This document shows positions 55,459 to 64,000 of a stretch of DNA of 64,000 nt, piece after piece. This DNA comes from Anaerohalosphaeraceae bacterium (GTDB lineage Bacteria; Planctomycetota; Phycisphaerae; Sedimentisphaerales; Anaerohalosphaeraceae). Both the position numbers and the translations under genes were made by a program. Location: positions 1 to 64,000 of the forward strand of contig JBNRMN010000001.1 of the NCBI GenBank assembly GCA_050309605.1, written 5' to 3'. The stretch's first letter is position 1. Every line of letters begins with the position of its first letter. The notes beneath the pieces were generated by a model that saw only the letters and a list, made by a program, of their open reading frames with translations, was not told where the DNA came from and ran no database searches.

Positions 55459-56331
55459 CTAATCAAACCGTTCCAGCCAATGTTCGCTCAGCAGCATCAA
55501 ATGGTCGATCGTAATGAATCCGTCGATATGGTTGGGGTCGGTGATCAAAAGCTCACAGGGTATATTCGGGTCCGCAACGACATTGGGGTCATTGCAGTCG
55601 GCCAGCCAGGCCTGGGCCATAATATCGAAGTCATGGTAATCAATGGCGCAGTCGGTGTTGAAATCGCCAAACGTCGGGACATTCCGGCAAAGGCGAAAAT
55701 GGTCCAGCGCCAAATAGCTTTTATAAATTTTGTCCAGATAATCGCGGACCTCGCACGACAGAACGTATTGGCCGCATTGCGTGCCATCGAATCGGTGATT
55801 GAAGTATTGCCAGTCATCGGTTGAACCGTAATTTCCGACATCATAAGTCGAAATTTCAGCAAGAATCACCGGACGCAGCCCATCATTGGGATCGACCGGC
55901 TCGAGTAAAATGCGTCCGGTGTCATCATAGGGCAGATAATCACAGGTCCCGAAAAAGTAATACCCGGAAATCGTATCTCCCGGGCAAATCGAAATCACCT
56001 GCTCTATTCTCGAATACAGCGTTTTTCCGGCCGAATCCATCCCCTGCGCATCGCCTGTGGACAACACCACAAAAAACTCTCCCTCGACGGGGCTTGGAAT
56101 CGACCAATAAACCGGCTGTCGCTGTTCCGGTCTTGGTGAGAATTGGCGATGCAGGCCGACGTAGTTCAGATTGCCGGGGGTGTCGTCCCACTGCCAGTAC
56201 ATGGGCGGTGTGAACCACGTCGTGGCACGGTTTGGGTCCGGAATTTCAAAGCTGCTGTTGAGAAGTTGTCCCTCGGAAACGGCGCAGAAAGACACACCGA
56301 GCAGCGCGACAATAAGGGCGCGCAAATCCAT
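55459..56331 (-). CDS. Secreted protein with C-terminal dockerin-like module
   Basis: Signal peptide MDLRALIVALLG…; LLNSSFE; GDFNTDCAIDYHDFDIMAQAWL. Confidence 0.78.
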   Translation of the reverse strand: MDLRALIVALLGVSFCAVSEGQLLNSSFEIPDPNRATTWFTPPMYWQWDDTPGNLNYVGLHRQFSPRPEQRQPVYWSIPSPVEGEFFVVLSTGDAQGMDSAGKTLYSRIEQVISICPGDTISGYYFFGTCDYLPYDDTGRILLEPVDPNDGLRPVILAEISTYDVGNYGSTDDWQYFNHRFDGTQCGQYVLSCEVRDYLDKIYKSYLALDHFRLCRNVPTFGDFNTDCAIDYHDFDIMAQAWLADCNDPNVVADPNIPCELLITDPNHIDGFITIDHLMLLSEHWLERFD

Positions 56332-56902
56332 AAGAAAAAAGTCCCGAAAAATCAAAAAAACCGCCCCATTATCGGCAAAAAGATCGATTGTTATAATAAA
56401 AATAATTGCAGTATTAAATTTGGCCCGTGAAAACCCGGATGTCCGCAACTGCCTGCTTTCGTGGGGCTATCAAAAACAGACAGCCACCCTTTTCACATGG
56501 CAAGAATATATCGATTATTCTATCACATAATAACGCCAATGGGTTGAAAATTGTTTCAAAAAAAATAAAAACAGGGAAAACTCCGGATATTTGGGTTTTC
56601 GCGGCGGTACTTGGGGCAACATTTTCGGGCGAAGCGTTGTTTTTTTGCAACACGGGTGTAAGTGATTGAACTTTCAGGCGATTAGAGAACGATGGAACGC
56701 TGCGGATGTTGTCGCAAATCAACCGGGCGGATTAGGCGCTATAAAGCGCATATCTTGTGCAGCGAATTGTAACTGTTTATTTCAGTAAAGCTTGCGGTTA
56801 TCGCAAGACGGCGTCGAGGCGGTCGTTTGCCGGCGCATCGGTCAGGAATAAATTTTGCATCCCATCACGACATAAATCGATAATTTTCCGGAGGGCAGAG
56901 TG

Positions 56903-57160
56903 ATGGAAGAGGCCCCGATTGAAAAAAAATTGGCGGACTTGATCGAGGAGTTAAGGCAATTGCCGGCCCTGTTTGATTCCGGGCAAATCCTGGGGACCCG
57001 TCGAGGCCGGGCGGCTTTGAAGAAACGGCTGAAAACAGCGGATAGTATTCAGGAAGCAATGGATTTTTTGCGCATCGGCGTGAAGTATCTGTTGTTTGAT
57101 CTGGAGGCGACACGTCGTGAAAACGCCGTCTTGAAGCGCCAAATCGACGATGATTCATAA
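56903..57160 (+). CDS. Small coiled-coil hypothetical protein
   Basis: LRIGVKYLLFDLEATRREN motif; GGAGG RBS. Confidence 0.75.
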   Translation: MEEAPIEKKLADLIEELRQLPALFDSGQILGTRRGRAALKKRLKTADSIQEAMDFLRIGVKYLLFDLEATRRENAVLKRQIDDDS

Positions 57161-57301
57161 CGGGTTCAGGCCGAAGCAAGTGAAAACGCTCGACCCGCCG
57201 CGGGGATAGTTCCTCGCCAAGTGCATCCACATTCATCCGGCGTTTGGGTTTTATAGGTTGCGTATCGACAGTGCTCGGTCGGGCGGGTATAATCGCGTTC
57301 T

Positions 57302-58126
57302 ATGATTAACGAATATTCTGCGCAGACAATCCTGTTTGCTTTTGGGCTGACGCTGCTGGCGGGGCTTTCGACGGGCATCGGCAGTGCGGTGGCGTATTTT
57401 GCCAAGCGAACCAATGTTCGATTTTTGTCGGTTGCGCTGGGGTTTTCGGCCGGCGTGATGATTTACATTTCGCTTGTGGAGATATTTCACAAAGCCCTGG
57501 AAGACTTGCAGGGGGCGCTGGGAAACGGCAGCGGGTACTGGGCGGCCTCGGCGGCATTCTTTGGGGGGATGGGGGCCATTGCGCTGATTGACCGGCTTGT
57601 TCCATCGTATGAAAACCCGCACGAACCGCATACCGCCGAGCAGATGGAAGACAGGGCTGCTGCGGCCAAACAGCGAAAACTGCATCGAATGGGTGTGTTG
57701 ACGGCGCTGGCGATAGCCATTCACAATTTTCCCGAAGGGCTGGCGACGTTTGTGGCGGCGCTGACCGATCCGCATCTGGGGATTGCCATTACCGTGGCGG
57801 TTGCGATTCATAATATTCCCGAAGGGATTGCCGTGTCGGTTCCGATTTTTTATGCCACCGGCAGCCGAAAAAAGGCATTTGTTTACTCTTTTTTGTCTGG
57901 TTTATCCGAGCCGGTCGGGGCGCTGGTGGGGTTCGGGTTGCTGTTTTTGTTTTTCAATGAGGTAATGCTGGGCGTGGTTTTTGCGTCGGTGGCGGGGATT
58001 ATGGTCTTTATCTCGCTGGACGAGCTGCTGCCGGCGGCGCGCGAATACGGCGAGCATCACCTGTCCATCTACGGTGTGGTAGGTGGAATGGCGGTGATGG
58101 CGATCAGCCTGGCACTGTTTGAATAG
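57302..58126 (+). CDS. zupT: ZIP-family zinc transporter
   Basis: [24 protein letters not shown] and HNIPEG, SGLSEP, LDELLP. Confidence 0.95.
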
Positions 58127-58250
58127 CGCGGCAATCGAGGCAAAAACGTTTGAAAAAATGGTTTTTTAGGACGATTTGAGCAAAATTTTTGTTTAAACAA
58201 CGCAGCGACAGGGCATTGCTGAGTGAATTTCAAGTCAGATAAGTGTTGTG

Positions 58251-58784
58251 ATGAAACAAGAACATGACATTTCCGACACCAAATCATTTATAGGGCTGTT
58301 GGTGGCCAATCAGCGGCGAATCTGGGCGTTTATTCTCAGTTTGGTGCCGAATTTGAACGACGCTGAGGATATTTTGCAGGAAACACTCGTTGAGATGTGG
58401 ACCAAGTTTGATCGTTACCAGCCGGGCACGGATTTCGCGGCCTGGGGCGTGACCATCGCCAAATACAAGGTGCTGACTTATCGCAAAAAACAGAAGCCCC
58501 AATGCGTCTTCAGTGAACAGACGCTGCAATTGCTTGAGAACGATTGCCGCCATGTTCTGGATACGATGGATACCCATCTTGATATCCTCAGTCAATGTAT
58601 CCAGAAATTGTCCTCCAAAGATAAGCGGCTGCTGTCGCTGCGCTACGAAATGGACATGACGTACCAAAAAATGGCCGATTGCGTCGGGTCCACCCCTCAG
58701 GGGATTCATCGCGTTCTCAGTTACATCCATGGGCGGTTGGCACAGTGTATCCGTTTGACCCTTCGTTTGGAGGATGCGTCATGA
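58251..58784 (+). CDS. ECF sigma-70 factor
   Basis: DAEDILQET, FAAWGVTIA, region 4 LLSLRY…LAQCI. Confidence 0.92.
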   Translation: MKQEHDISDTKSFIGLLVANQRRIWAFILSLVPNLNDAEDILQETLVEMWTKFDRYQPGTDFAAWGVTIAKYKVLTYRKKQKPQCVFSEQTLQLLENDCRHVLDTMDTHLDILSQCIQKLSSKDKRLLSLRYEMDMTYQKMADCVGSTPQGIHRVLSYIHGRLAQCIRLTLRLEDAS

Positions 58785-60478
58785 CCTGGCATTCGGGCTG
58801 CCTACAGGAACTGTCGGAGCTGACGTTTCACGCGCTGAATCAGACGATTACCGACGAGCAGTTTCAGCGGCTGGAGCAGTTGCTGGCAGCCTATCCTCTG
58901 GCTCGGGCGTATTATCTTGAAATCCTGTGGGTGTGTGTAGGATTGAACGAAAAAGAAGGGATTGCCTCCTTGCAGGCCGAAGGGCGCTCGTTAGAGGAGT
59001 TTGATATGGCGTTGTGGCAGGCGCTGGCGCGTGAGGAAAAGCAAGCGCGTCCTGCGGCATTCCATCAACCGATGTCCGAACCGCGGCCGCTGGTGACCAA
59101 TGTCAAGGCGTATAAGCAGACGCTCAAAGCCCCGCGTCGTGTTTCCAAGGCGGCGCTGTGGACGGCGGTGCTGTCGCTGGCGGCGATGCTGCTGATGGCG
59201 GTGTATGTGGTGTTGGCTCCGCCGCCGTCGATGGCGGTGGCGACGATTGTGGATGCGATTGACGCCCACGGTCCCGGCGCCCCGTCGGTCAAAACCGGTC
59301 TGCGGGTCACAACGTCGCGCGAGCCGATTCAATTGACGCGGGGAGTGATCCGGCTTCAGACTGATGCGGGGGTGGATATTTGTCTTGAGGGGCCGGCGGA
59401 ATTTCGATTTGTCAGCGGTACAGAACTGGTGATGACGTCCGGGCGTGTGTTTGCTCATGTCGGCCCTGAAGGCAGGGAATTTACGGTGACCACACCCAGT
59501 TCGAGGGTGATCGATCTGGGCACTCGATTCGGGGTTCAGGCCGATGCGAGCGGGCAGACCGAGCTTCATGTCTTTGAGGGCAGTGCGCTGATTTTGGCCG
59601 GCGAAGCGGACAAAAGCCGCACGCCGGATTTGGTCGAGGCCGGGCAGGCCCGTCGCGTGGATTATCAATCCCGCCGGATTGAAGCCATTCCGATTGTTCA
59701 GGAGCGTTTTGTGCGCCGTATCAATTCAGAAAAGCAGTTGGTGTGGCGCGGACAGAATTTATCGCTGGCGGATATGGTCGGGGGCGGCAACGGCTTGGGA
59801 ACGGGCCGGCCGGAGACGGGCATCAGCCCGCTGACCGGACGACGGGGCGGCTATGAGTCGCGGAACAGGGAGGCGTCCAATGAGTTTGTTCAAACACCGT
59901 TGGAGCCCTACATTGACGGGGTCTTTGTACCCAACGGACGAGGCATTCAAACGATCAGTTCTCACGGGCATATTTTCGAGGTCTGTCCTGAAACGGGCGG
60001 GCTGTTTTATTCCGAAATGATTTACGGCGCCGGTCATTATCTGGACGATTTTGCCCTGGGCGCCGAGGCCGGAACGCTGGGCGGTCGCGTCTATGGTACG
60101 TCGGAAACGCCGAGTCTGTTTTTGCATGCCAATCTCGGTATTACGTTTGATCTCAAGGCGATTCGCAATGATTATCCGGATTTTGCGATTTGCCGCTTTA
60201 CGGCCGAGGCGGGTCTGTCCACGGCTGCGCCGGAAACCGGTAACGCCGACATCTGGGTGCTGGTGGACGGGCAGGTGCGATTCGTTGAAAACGGCATTCG
60301 GGAAAAAGGCAAAGCGTTTTCGATAGATATCAAACTCAAACCGACGGATCGTTTTTTGACGCTGGTCAGTACCGACGGCGGCGACGACAATTCCGCTTTT
60401 CGGACGTCGATCGCTTCGGACTGGTGCGTCTTTGTCTGGCCGCAGCTTGTATCGGCAGGCAGCCGGAGCCATGAGTGA
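58781..60478 (+). CDS. FecR-like anti-sigma factor with C-terminal NPCBM/NEW2-like domain
   Basis: Overlaps the sigma stop codon; one TM helix; LEGPAEF, VIDLGTRFGV, HVFEG; HANLGITFDL…FLTLVSTDGG. Confidence 0.88.
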   Translation: MTWHSGCLQELSELTFHALNQTITDEQFQRLEQLLAAYPLARAYYLEILWVCVGLNEKEGIASLQAEGRSLEEFDMALWQALAREEKQARPAAFHQPMSEPRPLVTNVKAYKQTLKAPRRVSKAALWTAVLSLAAMLLMAVYVVLAPPPSMAVATIVDAIDAHGPGAPSVKTGLRVTTSREPIQLTRGVIRLQTDAGVDICLEGPAEFRFVSGTELVMTSGRVFAHVGPEGREFTVTTPSSRVIDLGTRFGVQADASGQTELHVFEGSALILAGEADKSRTPDLVEAGQARRVDYQSRRIEAIPIVQERFVRRINSEKQLVWRGQNLSLADMVGGGNGLGTGRPETGISPLTGRRGGYESRNREASNEFVQTPLEPYIDGVFVPNGRGIQTISSHGHIFEVCPETGGLFYSEMIYGAGHYLDDFALGAEAGTLGGRVYGTSETPSLFLHANLGITFDLKAIRNDYPDFAICRFTAEAGLSTAAPETGNADIWVLVDGQVRFVENGIREKGKAFSIDIKLKPTDRFLTLVSTDGGDDNSAFRTSIASDWCVFVWPQLVSAGSRSHE

Positions 60479-60623
60479 ATTGATCAACGGCAGGCATCCG
60501 GCAGGAGACGCCGGATGGGAGGCGGCCAGATGGCAGGTCAGTCGCCTCACGGAGGTGTGTTGTGTGTGGACGAGGGGCGACTTTCAATAAAAGGGATCAC
60601 TTTTATTTGGAAAGGGTAATGGT

Positions 60624-62549
60624 ATGAAACACAAGATTCTTTTAGCGACGTTGCTGGTGTGTCTCTGTGCGGTCGGCTTGCAGGCCAGCCCGATTCCGGT
60701 GACCAACTTTAGCTTTGAAGAGCCGGGGGTCGGCAAGATCAAAGGCTGGGACGGCGAAGGCGTTGACGGGACGCCGGCGGTGGATATTCCCGGCTGGACG
60801 TCGGATGACACGCCGACGGATTCGGGCGTCGAAACAGGGTTCAATGCAACGGACGGCGAATACAGCGCCTTTTTGAGAAGCACGGATCCGGCGGTCTGGC
60901 AGGTTACCGAAGCAACGGTTACGCCCGGTGCAACTTATGTACTGACGGCGGATTTGTGGTCCACATGGCAGGGCGAGTTTGTCGAGATGATGCTGTTCTA
61001 TCAGGACGACGGAACACGCGTTGCACTGGCTACAGCGGAAGTGTCCGTTACAGGCGATCCGGCCGCGGCGACGCTGGTCTTTTCGGCGGATGACGTCCCG
61101 GCCGAAGCGGTCGGCAAACCCATCGGAATCCTGTTCGACAACACAACAACGGCTTACGGCGACAGCAGTTGGGTAGGCATCGATGATGTGCGTCTGTCGG
61201 CACAGTATGTGACCTTGATCAATCCGGCGCCGGACGGGGTTGAGTTTGTGCCGACCGAGACGACCCTGGAGTGGTCCGTTGTCGATGGCTGGCCCGTCGA
61301 TGTGTATCTCAGCGGGCCGTACACCGAGCCGAACGAGGTGCCGACCCTGAATCAGGTGATTTTCAATGAGGCGGCATCGAGTTATACCCCTGAGGAGGGA
61401 TTCGAGATCGGCGGCAAGTGGTATTACTGGCGGGTGGATGCGTATGAGCCGAATGACCTTGGCGAGCAGGTGTCCGTCCTGCATGTCGGCCCGGTTTGGC
61501 ATTTCCGAACCGTCGAGCGTATTCCGCGGATTACCCAGCAGCCGGTCAATGCGCTGGTCGAGGCCGGACAAACGGCGATGTTTGAGGTTCTCGCCGCCAG
61601 TTTGACCGAAGAGGCATATCAATGGTATCGTTCCGATGATGCGCTCATTGACGAGCAAGCCGATGAAGCGCTTGTCGGCGGGCAGTCGGCGGTTCTGGAA
61701 ATTGCCGATACGCAGGTTGCCGATGAGGGGTATTATTATTGCCGCATTGAGAATACCGCCGGGGCGGTTTATACCCGAGTTGTTACCCTTGCCGTTCAGC
61801 GCGCGATGGCGCACTGGACGCTGGATGAGGCTGATTATGCAGACGGTCAGTACCTTGACGTCAGCGGCGAAGGCCGACACGCCGACCCGAACGGGACGCC
61901 GACGTTTGATGAGGGGGTGCTGGGTGAAAGCGCTTTAATCTACGGCGACGGCTGGGCCGATGCAGGAACGTGGAATCCCTCGCAGTACAGCGGACAGTTG
62001 ACGCTTTCACTCTGGGCCAAGTGGGACGGCACTACCGGCTGGCAGGGGCTGATCGCCAAGCGCAATGCCTTTGAGGTTGAAGAGATGTTGTGGCTTCTGG
62101 AGATCGCATCGGGTTCGAATGCGGTGGAATTCAAAAGCTCTACGCAAACAATCGGCTCTCCGGCGATCCCGGCAGATCAATGGGAGCACGTGGCGGTTAC
62201 CTTTGACGGCCAGACGGCGACCATTTACCGCAACGGCGTTCAGGCGGCTCAGGGAACAGTGGTTCTCGGCCAGAAAACCGACGCGAATATGGTGATTGGC
62301 GCTGCCGAGCTGAACGAGCAGACCGGTGCTGCCTGGACGTTCAACGGCGCATTGGATGATGTACGGATCTACAACTATGTCCTTGATTTTGAGGCGGTTG
62401 CGGAGTTGTACTATGCAGCGACAGGCGATTCGCCGTGTGTCTATTCGTATGCCGACCATTTGGATTTCAATGAGGATTGCGTTGTGGATTTGCTGGACTT
62501 TGCCGAAATGGCTTCTCAATGGCTTGATACCGGTCGGTATCCGCGGTGA
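60624..62549 (+). CDS. Secreted multidomain protein (CBM-like, Ig-like, LamG, dockerin-like)
   Basis: Signal peptide; NFSFEEP; YYWRVD; ITQQP…DEGYYYC; WEHVAVTFDG…LDDVRIYN; LDFNEDCVVDLLDFAEMASQWL. Confidence 0.88.
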   Translation: MKHKILLATLLVCLCAVGLQASPIPVTNFSFEEPGVGKIKGWDGEGVDGTPAVDIPGWTSDDTPTDSGVETGFNATDGEYSAFLRSTDPAVWQVTEATVTPGATYVLTADLWSTWQGEFVEMMLFYQDDGTRVALATAEVSVTGDPAAATLVFSADDVPAEAVGKPIGILFDNTTTAYGDSSWVGIDDVRLSAQYVTLINPAPDGVEFVPTETTLEWSVVDGWPVDVYLSGPYTEPNEVPTLNQVIFNEAASSYTPEEGFEIGGKWYYWRVDAYEPNDLGEQVSVLHVGPVWHFRTVERIPRITQQPVNALVEAGQTAMFEVLAASLTEEAYQWYRSDDALIDEQADEALVGGQSAVLEIADTQVADEGYYYCRIENTAGAVYTRVVTLAVQRAMAHWTLDEADYADGQYLDVSGEGRHADPNGTPTFDEGVLGESALIYGDGWADAGTWNPSQYSGQLTLSLWAKWDGTTGWQGLIAKRNAFEVEEMLWLLEIASGSNAVEFKSSTQTIGSPAIPADQWEHVAVTFDGQTATIYRNGVQAAQGTVVLGQKTDANMVIGAAELNEQTGAAWTFNGALDDVRIYNYVLDFEAVAELYYAATGDSPCVYSYADHLDFNEDCVVDLLDFAEMASQWLDTGRYPR

Positions 62550-62571
62550 TTTTTGGGCCGACCCGGCTGCG

Positions 62572-62603
62572 AACACCCCGGCTTGCGGGCCGGGGTGTTT
62601 TTT
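62572..62603 (+). terminator. Intrinsic terminator
   Basis: AACACCCCGGC-ttgcgg-GCCGGGGTGTT followed by a T-tract. Confidence 0.85.
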
Positions 62604-62696
62604 GCGTGACTGCCGTCAATATTTGCGATGTATCTTCTTTTTTCAAAATGAGTTATAATTATTTTGAGAATTTTCAGGATTTTTGTAAAAAAAGGG

Positions 62697-62926
62697 TTGA
62701 CGTTTTGTGTTAAATGGCTAAACTTACATTTCTCAGTTGAGGACAGTAATTTCGGATGTGACGTGCCGAGGTGATGGGAAAAGGAAAAACTGAGTCTTGA
62801 AAAAAAGTTTGCGAAATTTGAAGTTTTTGACTTGACGGTTCATAAGCATTAGCTTAAGATGCTATGTCTGACAGCAAATGTCGCTGAAGCTTATGACCAG
62901 CGGCATTTTTTATTGCTCTTTGGTAA
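62697..62926 (+). promoter_or_regulatory. Tandem rrn-type promoters and boxA
   Basis: TTGACG-16-TAAACT (62697-62724), TTGACG-17-TAAGAT (62832-62860), boxA-like TGCTCTTTGGTAA (62914-62926). Confidence 0.75.
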
Positions 62927-63010
62927 TAGAGACGGGAAATTGGAGTTGAGTCTTGAGAGCCGACCGGCCGGGCGGAACATCAGTCACAGTCAGGTTCGGC
63001 AGGGATCGTC

Positions 63011-63084
<74 letters not shown>

Positions 63085-63193
63085 TTGACATTGACAATTG
63101 ACGATAGACTATTTTGGGATGGGCAATTACCGGAAACGTCCGCGACTTTCAGTGATTGTGGGATTATTGGAAATAGTCAATAGTCAATTGATC

Positions 63194-63266
63194 GGGGACG
63201 TAGCTCAGCTGGGAGAGCGCCGGCTTTGCAAGCCGGAAGTCGTGGGTTCGAATCCCATCGTCTCCA
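63194..63266 (+). tRNA. tRNA-Ala(TGC)
   Basis: GGGGACGTAGCTCAGCTGGGAGAGCGCCGGCTTTGCAAGCCGG…CGTCTCCA. Confidence 0.97.
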
Positions 63267-63533
63267 GTTGAGCCGTGCTCGGCAGAAAAATGAATGTTAA
63301 GGCGTTTAGGCCTTTTCAGATAAATAGGTTCTTTGACAAGTTCATAGTGGATAATTGTGGGTTGTGGGCACAGAAGCGTTTTTCTGTGCAACACATACTA
63401 CAACAGGTTAGTTCCGTATTTTTTACGGAACGGATCTGAAATGAGCGCTTATTAGCAAATACACCAAACCTGATATTCCGGCCGGTTTTCGGTCGGGGTA
63501 TGGCGAAACGGCCTGTCAATCTGTGATTGATAT

Positions 63534-63817
63534 GGTCAAGTTACTAAGAGTGCATGGGGGATGTCTTGGTGTCGAGAGGCGATGAAGGACGCGGCAGACT
63601 GCGAAAATTTCGGGGCAGAAGTCTAGCATTCGTTAATCCCGAAGTGTCCGAATGGGGAAACCCGTCGCCGGCGGGCAACCGACCGGCGTCATCCATGGCT
63701 GAATGCATAGGCCATGAGAAGCCAACGCAGGGAACTGAAACATCTAAGTACCTGCAGGAAAGGAAATCAACCGAGACTCCGTCAGTAGCGGCGAGCGAAA
63801 GCGGAATAGCCCAAACC
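63534..63817 (+). rRNA. rrl: 23S rRNA, 5' fragment (interrupted by an insertion; remainder not in window)
   Basis: GGTCAAG start; GGCGATGAAGGACG, CCGAATGGGGAAACC, GAACTGAAACATCTAAGTA, AGTAGCGGCGAGCGAAA, AGCCCAAACC. Confidence 0.95.
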
Positions 63818-63847
63818 CAGCACCTATTTTAACTAAGGATGAACACC

Positions 63848-64000
63848 ATGTGTTATGTGTACGTTCTTATCGATGAACAAACCGGAAAAAACTATACTGG
63901 ATACAGTTCCAATCTAAAGCGTCGTCTTGTACAGCACCAAAACGGTCACGGTGCTAAAACAACGTGTAAAGGCGACTGGAAACTGGTTTATTATGAGTCT
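63848..64000 (+). CDS. GIY-YIG nuclease family protein (3'-truncated by window end) inside the 23S rRNA gene
   Basis: Own translation, not in the ORF track: MCYVYVLIDEQTGKNYTGYSSNLKRRLVQHQNGHGAKTTCKGDWKLVYYES; AAGGA RBS at 63835-63839. Confidence 0.88.
   Translation, partial: MCYVYVLIDEQTGKNYTGYSSNLKRRLVQHQNGHGAKTTCKGDWKLVYYES

Follow-up and report, generated by a model that had tools for sequence, protein, structure and literature searches.

A hairpin-closed GIY-YIG nuclease cassette of the intervening-sequence type within the 23S rRNA gene of an Anaerohalosphaeraceae bacterium

The window analyzed here, a stretch of 64,000 nt forming the start of a contig (C1) of the source genome (G000), ends inside a 23S rRNA gene that is preceded on the same (+) strand by genes for tRNA-Ile (anticodon GAT; 63011-63084; Rfam tRNA, 69.7 bits) and tRNA-Ala (anticodon TGC; 63194-63266; Rfam tRNA, 72.8 bits), both anticodons being read from the sequence. 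According to Rfam RF02541 and a blastn alignment with E. coli rrlH, the 23S rRNA gene begins on the + strand at 63534 and continues for 284 nt to position 63817, where its last letters before the insert are ...GAATAGCCCAAACC. There it switches to an intervening sequence of 301 nt in total, a hairpin-closed cassette with a GIY-YIG open reading frame (ORF), which occupies 63818-64000 (+) of the window and continues to C1:64118. The contig extends beyond position 64000, and the 23S rRNA gene picks up again at contig position 64119, as the earlier note had predicted from the window; the truncated pseudogene that it had considered as an alternative was not borne out. The match to the Rfam LSU_rRNA_bacteria model amounts to 208 bits for 63534-64000 in the window and to 2098 bits for the full contig. 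The interruption of the 23S rRNA gene by a GIY-YIG nuclease ORF at this place, the central claim of the earlier note, is confirmed. The source genome is a 3.4 Mb draft of 97 contigs that is 99.7% complete, with one assembled 23S copy, on a contig that stops within the 23S rRNA gene, and with a gene for RNase III.

A short hairpin that spans about 274-300 in the Rfam model carries the insert in its apical part, opposite approximately position 270 of E. coli (site 270), and the Rfam alignment shows 287 surplus nt in the loop of this model hairpin. E. coli 23S rRNA is without the short hairpin that hosts the insert; blastn aligned E. coli rrlH positions 157-270, with the match stopping just before the insert. 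Relative to empty alleles of the same genus, the 301 nt stand in place of a native 12-nt hairpin. Placement of the insert in the variable region around helix 16 had been proposed before; the host is a hairpin that we take to be helix 15 rather than helix 16. The site is distinct from the classical sites in helices 9, 25, and 45, and in that respect it is as unusual as had been supposed.

A long stem closes the cassette. An inverted-repeat search identified 22-nt arms in an element of 301-305 nt, with 18 nt of them forming a perfect inverted repeat; the 5' arm, CCCAGCACCTATTTTAACTAAG, is located at 63816-63837 (+) and the 3' arm at C1:64099-64120, outside the window. The complementary arm that had been anticipated beyond the window end is present, as the 3' arm AGGTGCTGGG pairs with CCCAGCACCT. 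In the RNA minimum-free-energy fold, 22 consecutive pairs close the insert, and the stem structure exceeds chance, given a fold z-score of -6.9, the finding that 0 of 100 shuffles were equally stable, and a motif scan of the genome (described below) with 5 matches vs. 0 in each of four controls. Across 53 distinct stems of such elements, the mismatches comprise 53 G.T vs. 3 A.C, a sense-strand, RNA-type wobble tolerance by which the stem is under selection at the RNA level. No target-site duplication was visible.

A Shine-Dalgarno-like AAGGA at 63835-63839 (+), within the 5' arm of the stem and 8 nt before the second of two ATG codons (63839 and 63848), may serve in translation initiation, and it is paired in the predicted fold. 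The ORF comprises 118 codons from the first ATG and 115 from the second, and the database gene call is of 115 aa (P0002). Homologs start with MYYVY where the second ATG lies, which makes this the likely true start, with the ORF extending from 63848 to 64000 (+) in the window and on to a TGA at C1:64193-64195. The ORF had been missed by the list of reading frames and is real, as the earlier note had held, although its expectation of a stop after 80-100 codons did not hold. The conserved domain stops at about C1:64105, and the TAA and TAG of the 3' arm are both out of frame in this copy. Deprived of its own stop in this way, the ORF extends 30 codons into the 23S rRNA gene, to the TGA, which lies 75 nt inside the resumed 23S. 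A 1-nt offset close to the 3' arm has cost this copy its in-frame stop, perhaps as an early step of decay. The same-site copy of another genome, G019, is frameshifted, and those of L016 and L017 have a natural stop.

The predicted product belongs to the Slx1/UPF0213 branch of the GIY-YIG nucleases, in minimal form; its small, UPF0213-like GIY-YIG signature had been recognized before. It matches Pfam GIY-YIG (PF01541) at E=3.6e-17 over residues 4-74, with 62.9 bits compared to a curated cut-off of 22.6. The residues Y6, Y8, Y19, G21, R29, H33, and E65 are present in the protein and, across 41 sequences, vary little or not at all; they include the catalytic residues, which we take to be the two tyrosines of the GIY and YIG motifs, the arginine, the histidine, and the metal-binding glutamate. 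Searched against the PDB, the family profile matched the UPF0213 structure 1zg2 at 3.8e-12 and SLX1 at 6.5e-5, and the best Foldseek matches to an AlphaFold model of the protein (pLDDT 85) were 1zg2, 7cq2, 1ywl, 6seh, and 7wme, i.e., UPF0213, Slx1, and At-HIGLE structures, with UvrC and I-TevI being far weaker (Foldseek E about 1 for I-TevI). The Pfam scan of the ORF listed GIY-YIG-type families only, with PF19835 (SegE) under its cut-off and PF05635 (S23p / 23S_rRNA_IVP) not found. The protein is a bare catalytic domain of about 85-86 conserved residues, with a DNA-binding domain absent. Relative to the same-site copy L016, dN/dS is about 0.12, with synonymous sites saturated. To judge from these comparisons, the nuclease domain is intact, with its predicted catalytic residues kept, and under purifying selection.

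Empty alleles, for which the earlier note had suggested a search among relatives, are found in the closest ones. All five same-genus genomes that contain the region (5/5) carry native short hairpins with covarying stems at an empty site, such as ...AAACC GATCTTCGGATC GGGGTTG... in G006, with flanks that are 99-100% identical. More widely, the spacing of high-scoring segment pairs (HSPs) reveals no insert longer than about 30 nt in 23 of 25 relatives with the region. In addition, rRNA contigs of other organisms join position 1784 of the locus sequence (L001) to position 2086, exactly the 301 nt being absent. The metatranscriptome run X14 contained conserved parts of 23S rRNA and other organisms' empty alleles only; run shares under 0.5 were left out as evidence. 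In the 23S tree, the source genome is sister to the empty G006 (97/91) within a starred clade of six empties, and the filled L017 is sister to the empty G007 (100/100). As the closest relatives are empty and the source genome is nested among them, the cassette was gained in this lineage, which fits the description of the insert as possibly self-spreading. Five occupied site-270 alleles were identified (G000, G019, L016, L017, and G030), and the proteins encoded at this site form one clade (SH-aLRT 99). The terminus type CCCAGCACC... is common to the source genome and the distant hosts L016 and G030, whereas the closer host L017 has CCCCGCACC....

The source genome also contains three elements that share the GCAC[CT]TA...GTGC ends and lack an ORF, one in helix 25 of the 23S rRNA gene (99 nt) and two in the RNase P RNA gene (92 and 100 nt; the gene itself scores 268 bits). 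In their fuller form, the shared termini consist of a C-run and GCAC[CT]TA at one end and TA[GA]GTGC and a G-run at the other. The genome was scanned for 14-nt arms that start with CnGCAC and have a reverse-complement partner, which gave 5 matches, compared to 0 for each of four control motifs. The fifth match (C42:11668-11757, 1 mismatch) is not counted as a member, as it belongs to no Rfam family and has different ends. The ORF-less elements are polymorphic within the genus: G000, G006, and G002 have those in helix 25 and the RNase P RNA gene, G001 and G003 have none of them, G005 likewise lacks the one in helix 25, and G002 carries one extra ORF-less element. Searches with the family profile gave no match to the gene in G006 (a genome that is 83% complete) and only a 54-bit match in G002, which has no strong gene copy. 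As at site 270, the native hairpin has been wholly replaced, stem included, at helix P3 of RNase P RNA.

To place the cassette in a broader context, we retained 79 related loci from a search of genome contigs seeded with a 9-sequence alignment; the search pattern was a single peptide, WxLVYYE[SA]Y, and the loci sample one subfamily. Hairpin cassettes of this kind enclose relatives of the ORF at numerous helix tips in 16S and 23S rRNA genes, at RNase P RNA genes, and closely upstream of tRNA genes, in many phyla as far as partly unreliable metagenome-assembled genome (MAG) labels can be followed, and many of the closest protein relatives come from genomes of candidate phyla radiation (CPR) bacteria. 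rRNA flanks the gene on both sides in 48 of the 79 loci and on one side in 4; the 48 loci inside rRNA genes occupy about nine different sites, and all 52 rRNA-associated loci (52/52) are co-oriented with the rRNA, i.e., in the sense direction. A flanking inverted repeat with a score of at least 30 is present at 58/79 loci, compared to 0/127 displaced controls. Of the 27 loci outside rRNA genes, 2 lie at RNase P RNA, for 7 the distance from their end to a downstream tRNA gene is at most 25 nt, and 19 are free-standing without inverted repeats; within the order of the source genome as well, many high-scoring relatives are free-standing genes without inverted repeats. Because these loci are kin and their labels are partly unreliable, the counts overstate independence.

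Transfer of the cassette across phyla was considered and dropped. L016 is titled Actinomycetota, yet its 23S rRNA is 82% identical to that of the source genome, compared to about 73% for other phyla, and identical cassettes occur on several short contigs of rRNA that are assigned to different phyla, so that MAG labels are unreliable here. A MAG titled Planctomycetota shares 89% 23S rRNA identity with the source genome.

The closest published counterpart is found in CPR bacteria, in which GIY-YIG ORFs were described in non-intron insertions of 16S and 23S rRNA genes (Tsurumaki et al., 2024; PMC11270868), in a paper whose text in turn cites Brown et al. (2015). According to the main text of that study, the insertions match neither group I nor group II introns and are scattered over several less conserved sites, mostly the tips or bases of stem-loops. 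The earlier note, which had listed four-helix-bundle proteins as the kind encoded by intervening sequences, missed these cases. The small GIY-YIG ORF within a non-intron rRNA insertion is alike in both systems, whereas the host here is not a CPR bacterium; the main text of PMC11270868 does not use the term "inverted repeat" or give an account of conserved termini, and the passages that we draw on mention neither ORF-less relatives in RNase P RNA nor a link to tRNA flanks. In our literature search for a hairpin-bracketed GIY-YIG element, the CPR paper alone was found, and a search combining YhbQ and GIY-YIG returned none.

The cassette also shares features with several better-known systems and differs from each of them. 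In the classical intervening sequences of 23S rRNA, known from Salmonella, Yersinia, Campylobacter, Leptospira, and Coxiella in helices 9, 25, and 45, the insert is processed by RNase III and in some cases encodes a four-helix-bundle protein (S23p / 23S_rRNA_IVP). As in those, a helix tip is replaced by a long stem-loop, the occurrence is sporadic among close relatives, the insert is probably co-transcribed with the rRNA, and a gene for RNase III is present. By contrast, the insert here occupies a hairpin of domain I at site 270, the ORF encodes a GIY-YIG nuclease and not PF05635, and the termini are conserved across sites and genes, like those of a mobile-element family. Eukaryotic Slx1 has a zinc-finger domain and requires Slx4, and we know of no assigned function for the solved bacterial UPF0213 proteins. 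The Slx1/UPF0213 nucleases (PDB 1zg2, 1ywl, 6seh, 7cq2, and 7wme) provide the best profile and fold matches, with the catalytic Tyr, Tyr, Arg, His, and Glu conserved, and a passage in PMC1564403 describes the prokaryotic Slx1-family members as a minimal, domain-only form; in the published passages that we draw on, no such nuclease is said to reside between inverted repeats within a stable-RNA gene. Free-standing and intron-borne homing endonucleases, such as I-TevI and the Seg proteins of phage T4, likewise have a catalytic domain of the GIY-YIG type, a distribution that looks selfish, and a conserved gene of which filled and empty alleles exist. Unlike in these enzymes, there is no DNA-binding or linker domain here, the fold match to I-TevI is weak, the Pfam match to SegE (PF19835) is below its cut-off, and the targets are many unrelated sites and not one long recognition sequence.

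Small mobile elements with hairpin ends include MITEs, REP elements with RAYT, and IS200/IS605. With these, the family has in common conserved inverted termini, ORF-less copies that outnumber the gene-bearing copy, no visible target-site duplication, and hairpin-forming DNA. However, a GIY-YIG nuclease takes the place of an HUH or DDE transposase, structured-RNA genes are targeted at their loop tips, and the stem has the wobble tolerance described above, on the sense strand and of RNA type (53 G.T vs. 3 A.C).

Overall, the best explanation is probably that a 301-nt hairpin-closed cassette of the intervening-sequence type replaced the native tip hairpin of a variable domain-I helix. The earlier interpretation of the insert is partly supported: an intervening sequence and not an intron is what the locus indicates, the 301 nt consisting almost entirely of the ORF and the closing stem, with no intron found by Rfam. 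Beyond this, we infer fragmentation of the 23S rRNA, translation of the ORF, and mobility driven by the nuclease. The cassette, without a promoter of its own, would be transcribed within the pre-23S rRNA, in which a stem of at least 22 bp would prolong the native helix and be cut by RNase III. The ribosome would then tolerate the insert, with its 23S rRNA in pieces of about 284 nt, about 300 nt up to the helix-25 element, and the rest. Either the precursor or the excised RNA might serve for translation of the ORF; against this, the Shine-Dalgarno sequence and the start codon inside the stem could block translation, and the excised RNA would be a non-stop message, as there is no stop codon inside the element in this copy. 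Least certain are the last steps, in which the protein would select DNA by its structure and cut hairpins or cruciforms at the C/G-clamped hairpin tips of empty sites, and repair from a filled copy would spread the cassette and, in trans, its ORF-less derivatives. The presence of ORF-less elements in G006 and G002 without a strong gene copy counts against nuclease-driven spread, and to our knowledge no GIY-YIG enzyme acts as a transposase. Also weighing against the explanation are the missing DNA-binding domain, the lack of a visible target-site duplication, the frameshifted copy in G019, and the many free-standing relatives without repeats.

A broader proposal, which we advance tentatively and consider slightly more apt to fail than to hold, is that these cassettes form a distinct and essentially undescribed class of bacterial mobile element. 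Its members would be about 300 bp long and palindrome-ended, with an 85-residue Slx1-like GIY-YIG nuclease as their sole gene, entering or replacing C/G-clamped hairpin tips of 16S, 23S, and RNase P RNA genes, with related copies directly upstream of tRNA genes. They would depend on the host promoter and on stem formation at the RNA level, probably with RNase III, to stay harmless, and would mobilize ORF-less, MITE-like copies in trans.

It is conceivable, though in our judgment rather unlikely, that the ORF is a passenger, with the hairpin elements spread either by DNA uptake followed by ordinary homologous recombination of rRNA genes or by another host or trans-acting enzyme, and with the small GIY-YIG protein having some other role (repair, defense, or addiction) or none while exploiting strong rRNA transcription. 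ORF-less elements outnumber the ORF-bearing one 3 to 1 in the source genome and persist in the two related genomes without a strong gene copy. The replacement of whole native hairpins with their stems at site 270 and in RNase P helix P3 resembles allele conversion with flanks, repeat-free relatives are common as free-standing genes, and homing is doubted in the text of the CPR study (PMC11270868). However, gene and conserved termini occur together at many unrelated sites in many phyla, with strong repeats at most of the related loci, and homology of flanks alone cannot explain movement among the non-homologous 23S, 16S, RNase P, and tRNA-flank sites. Moreover, purifying selection on the ORF within a selfish-looking cassette is not what a passenger would suggest. 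Much less probable is an old, vertically inherited planctomycete intervening sequence that was lost many times and is now immobile. The saturation of synonymous sites between copies does imply that the copies are old, and the hosts of all five occupied site-270 alleles have 23S rRNA 82-89% identical to that of the source genome or belong to the same order; yet the source genome is nested among six empties with homologous native hairpins and covarying stems, which deletion could not recreate. The sharing of a terminus type with distant rather than closer hosts, the polymorphism of the ORF-less members within the genus, and the extra member in G002 also argue against ancient inheritance.

GIY-YIG genes are classical passengers of introns, and the ORF has a weak match to TIGR01453, a family of group I intron endonucleases (E=0.0026, 17.8 bits vs. 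a cut-off of 56). A group I or other self-splicing intron with a homing endonuclease gene was nevertheless rejected as highly improbable, as Rfam at gathering thresholds finds LSU rRNA and tRNAs alone in the locus, and the approximately 30 nt before the ORF, with the ORF running through the 3' arm, leave no space for a ribozyme core; the predicted fold, too, resembles Slx1/UPF0213 more closely than I-TevI. An assembly chimera or a dead rRNA pseudogene, for which a 97-contig draft, a contig ending inside the 23S rRNA gene, and a single assembled 23S copy might speak, is hardly credible either. Logan contigs from runs of two other studies cover positions 1740-2250 and 1699-2250 of L001, with 5 and 9 differences, and both junctions are spanned by these independent contigs, on which ground the chimera, named in the earlier note as a possible refutation, was rejected. 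A pseudogene is at odds with the 2098 bits against the bacterial LSU model and with this being the only 23S rRNA gene found in a genome that is 99.7% complete.

Although rRNA intervening sequences were recognized decades ago, a cassette with conserved ends, a nuclease gene, and ORF-less derivatives now offers a concrete, testable origin for at least part of them, with filled and empty alleles available in genomes whose flanks are 99-100% identical. If the proposal is true, a minimal GIY-YIG domain without a DNA-binding module acts in a mobile element, which bears on the role of UPF0213/YhbQ-like proteins, and many intervening sequences and unexplained expansions of stable RNAs might be footprints of one nuclease-driven family that reaches far beyond CPR bacteria. 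In practical terms, such inserts break rRNA assemblies, alter amplicon lengths, and lead to errors in the annotation of genes for rRNA and RNase P RNA. As carriers exist among cultured strains, the element is open to study at the RNA level and by biochemistry; by record title, these strains include Deferribacter thermophilus BMA, Methylotuvimicrobium sp. KM1, Methylomicrobium sp. wino1, and Lagierella massiliensis SIT14.

The 23S rRNA gene lies downstream of genes for tRNA-Ile(GAT) and tRNA-Ala(TGC), and its 5' part (63534-63817, forward strand; Rfam RF02541) closes with ...GAATAGCCCAAACC at 63817, where an insert opens with CAGCACCTATTTTAACTAAGG, followed by ATG codons at 63839 and 63848 and an open frame. 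From the sequence alone, an earlier note had read this as a nuclease-coding 23S intervening sequence, possibly self-spreading, and predicted continuation of the frame, a complementary 3' arm and resumption of 23S past the window end. Contig C1 extends to 66373, and all three were found there: the frame runs on, GTTAAAATAGGTGCTGGG pairs with the 5' end of the insert as an 18-nt perfect inverted repeat, and 23S is picked up again at GGGGTTGCGGGCG. The feature itself is real and was correctly read in the earlier note; it is an intervening sequence of rRNA that carries a passenger gene.

The whole locus scores 2098 bits against the LSU model of Rfam, a small hairpin (model positions ~274-300) having 287 additional nt in its loop, and blastn places the junction directly after E. 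coli rrlH position 270 (site 270), where E. coli itself lacks this hairpin. We take the hairpin holding the insert to be helix 15 in general numbering, adjoining the helix 16 named in the earlier note. The boundaries follow from the empty allele of the same-genus genome G006 (AAACC-GATCTTCGGATC-GGGGTTG), whose flanks are 99-100% identical to those of the source genome, G000: the insert is a cassette of 301 nt (63818-64118) that replaces a 12-nt hairpin. Folded as RNA, its ends form 22 consecutive pairs stacked on the native helix (z=-6.9, with 0 of 100 shuffles equally stable), and its G+C content is ~45%, vs 54.5% for the genome. A group I-type intron was rejected, since the Rfam search gave no intron match in the locus and there is no space for a ribozyme core, only ~30 nt preceding the ORF and the ORF itself crossing the 3' arm; the proposal of an intervening sequence without an intron core was thus upheld.

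Counted from the first ATG (63839), the ORF has 118 codons; homologs begin MYYVY where the second ATG (63848) stands, with AAGGA 8 nt upstream of it, and the database annotates a gene of 115 aa. The GIY-YIG assignment was borne out by Pfam (62.9 bits, E=3.6e-17), and the protein has all the residues that are invariant in an alignment of 41 relatives (Y6, Y8, G21, R29, H33, Y51, A61, R64, E65, and K69). The family profile matches the UPF0213 structures 1zg2 (3.8e-12) and 1ywl, with SLX1 after them, and the closest folds to the AlphaFold model (pLDDT 85) are UPF0213, Slx1, and At-HIGLE, UvrC and I-TevI being far weaker matches. The protein is the catalytic domain alone of a predicted GIY-YIG nuclease; a passage of PMC1564403 treats prokaryotic Slx1-family members of this catalytic-domain-only type as the minimal form. 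The dN/dS of 0.12 against the same-site copy L016, a comparison in which synonymous sites are saturated, shows that selection has acted on the protein. The stop codon is the TAA of the 3' arm in L016 and the TAG of the 3' arm in L017, another filled locus; in G000 the stretch before the 3' arm is shorter by one base, so that both triplets are out of frame, and the ORF runs on through 30 codons of 23S before it meets a TGA (contig position 64193-64195). The family profile detects a single GIY-YIG gene of this type in G000, the insert ORF; it detects none in G006, and in G002, also of the same genus, its one match is weak. The other small GIY-YIG genes of related genomes stand alone and lack repeats.

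Empty alleles, with which the earlier note had proposed comparison, were found in relatives: 25 of the 40 searched hold this 23S region, and in 23 of these it contains no insert longer than ~30 nt, as judged by HSP spacing. Nine empty alleles read directly have short native hairpins with covarying stems (including GATC/GATC, AAGC/GCTT, AGGC/GCCT, and GAAAAGC/CTTTTT). These hairpins are the ancestral state, and deletion of an insert could not regenerate them. A homologous full-length cassette occupies the same site in G019 (same family, other genus), and site 270 of G030 (same order) holds an ORF-less element of ~104 nt with the same ends. In a 23S tree of ~1300 nt, with insert columns left out, G000 is sister to the empty G006 (97/91), both within a starred clade with five further empty alleles, and the filled L017 is sister to the empty relative G007 (100/100). 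G000 shares its ends (CCCAGCACC...) with L016 and G030, which are hosts farther removed, and not with the closer host L017, which has CCCCGCACC...; taken with the position of G000 among empties, this sequence comparison indicates that the cassette was acquired in the G000 lineage. In G019 the cassette (L005, G019:C218, ~1717-1800) has an A-run one base short, so that codon 27 becomes an in-frame TAG, and this copy is either decaying or affected by a homopolymer sequencing error.

Cross-phylum transfer is not claimed, since the 23S of L016, a locus titled Actinomycetota, is planctomycete-like and 82% identical to that of G000, vs ~73% for other phyla; the G000 23S is 89% identical to that of a MAG titled Planctomycetota, a likeness that makes G000 a planctomycete. 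The locus pairs L020/L039 and L074/L077 likewise combine different phylum or domain labels with cassettes and rRNA flanks that are identical or nearly so (a Desulfurococcales archaeon with Desulfobacterales; Desulfuromonadales with Anaerolineales), and misbinning seems to be frequent among short rRNA contigs in MAGs.

A scan of G000 for 14-nt arms that begin with CnGCAC and have a reverse-complement partner at a distance of 30-460 nt gave five matches, vs none for each of four control motifs: the cassette, an element in 23S helix 25, two elements in RNase P RNA, and a match on contig C42 that is doubtful and was left out of the family count. The helix-25 element (C1:64422-64520, 99 nt, ORF-less) belongs to the same 23S gene, just past the end of the window, and sits precisely in the loop of a hairpin of the form CCC-loop-GGG (CCC/GCACTTACTTTG...CAAAGTAAGTGC/GGG). 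Within the genus, G000, G006, and G002 have it and G001, G003, and G005 do not; at helix 25 of G009 there is an ORF-less element of greater length whose ends are the same. The RNase P RNA gene (RF00010, 268 bits) carries its two hairpin elements at the P3 tip (G000:C33:185774-185865, 92 nt) and near the 3' end (186171-186270, 100 nt; both in L096), each with CCCCGCACCTAAAAA... ends. Both are common to G000, G006, and G002, the last of which adds a third; G001 and G003 have native hairpins instead. The core ends shared by these elements are GCAC[CT]TA...TA[GA]GTGC, with a C-run before them and a G-run after them, and no target-site duplication is visible at them.

Related loci were collected with one peptide pattern, the best 80 of 269 relatives yielding 79 loci. 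Among these 79, rRNA stands on both sides of the ORF in 48 and on one side in 4, and the ORF is in sense with the rRNA in all 52 rRNA-flanked loci. In E. coli numbering, the sites among the loci kept are ~150, 270, 545, 1170, 1710, 1870, and 2800 in 23S and ~70 and 460 in 16S, with two further 23S loci in wider, undefined gaps; of the 27 non-rRNA loci kept, 2 adjoin RNase P RNA, and 7 lie upstream of a tRNA gene in the same orientation, ending no more than 25 nt from it. Inverted repeats with a score of 30 or more flank 58 of the 79 loci vs 0 of 127 displaced controls, with the strict CnGCAC motif in 22 of these 58 and close variants in most others. Same-site proteins group in the protein tree, where those of site 270 are a clade supported by an SH-aLRT of 99; site labels require 28 changes vs a shuffled mean of 46.5, in a tree of 89 columns only where near-copies inflate site clustering. 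Transition-type mismatches in 53 distinct stems, which belong to kindred elements and in some arms take in native rRNA pairs, number 53 G.T vs 3 A.C, which shows selection on the stem in its sense strand, the simplest reading being that it acts as RNA. Several carriers are, by record titles, cultured strains or complete genomes.

There are clear signs of recent gain and of membership of a mobile family. The insert differs from classical rRNA intervening sequences in its site, outside the classical helices, and from CPR rRNA insertions in its non-CPR host. In the portions of PMC11270868 concerned with CPR rRNA genes, all GIY-YIG proteins lie within insertions matching neither intron class, and GIY-YIG-coding insertions are sparse and at several sites; the term "inverted repeat" is absent from its main text. 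In full-text literature searches we found no description of the hairpin cassette, its termini, ORF-less RNase P RNA relatives, or non-CPR carriers.

The cassette and pre-23S would form one transcript, and the stem would be cut by RNase III, a gene for which is present in G000, leaving 23S in pieces; the ORF may be translated from the precursor or from the excised RNA. Least certain are the steps of spread, in which the Slx1-like nuclease might cleave empty C/G-clamped hairpin tips where the DNA takes a hairpin or cruciform form, after which a filled element might be copied into the empty site by repair. Against this picture as a whole, the SD and start codon lie within the stem, the G000 copy has no stop codon inside the element, ORF-less copies are kept in G006 and G002 without the gene, and the protein lacks a DNA-binding domain; homing is also doubted in the CPR study (PMC11270868).

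Two other loci deserve mention. A 57%-identical GIY-YIG cassette with different arms (CCGTCACTTGATTTA...) is found at 23S ~1854/1875 in both rRNA operons of G031, a complete genome of the same order (L113; G031:C1:2114624-2114875 and 3760539-3760790). In a Kaiserbacteria MAG, a group I intron match (L067:1-216; RF00028, 60 bits) has a distant ORF relative ~200 nt downstream, which belongs to a clade without flanking inverted repeats.

As to the surroundings of the gene, C1 ends within 23S at 66373 (model position 2478 of 2925), and the rest of the gene, its 3' part, was not recovered from the G000 assembly. The 7.5 kb that precede tRNA-Ile, tRNA-Ala, and 23S (window 56000-63534) contain no 16S gene, and the sole 16S piece in G000 lies at the end of another contig (G000:C28:63-947), so the rRNA genes look either unlinked or split by assembly. 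Short ATTGAC/AGTCAAT-like repeats are abundant in the tRNA-adjoining spacers (window 63085-63193 and 63100-63190), and likewise around the RNase P RNA of relatives (L104-L107).
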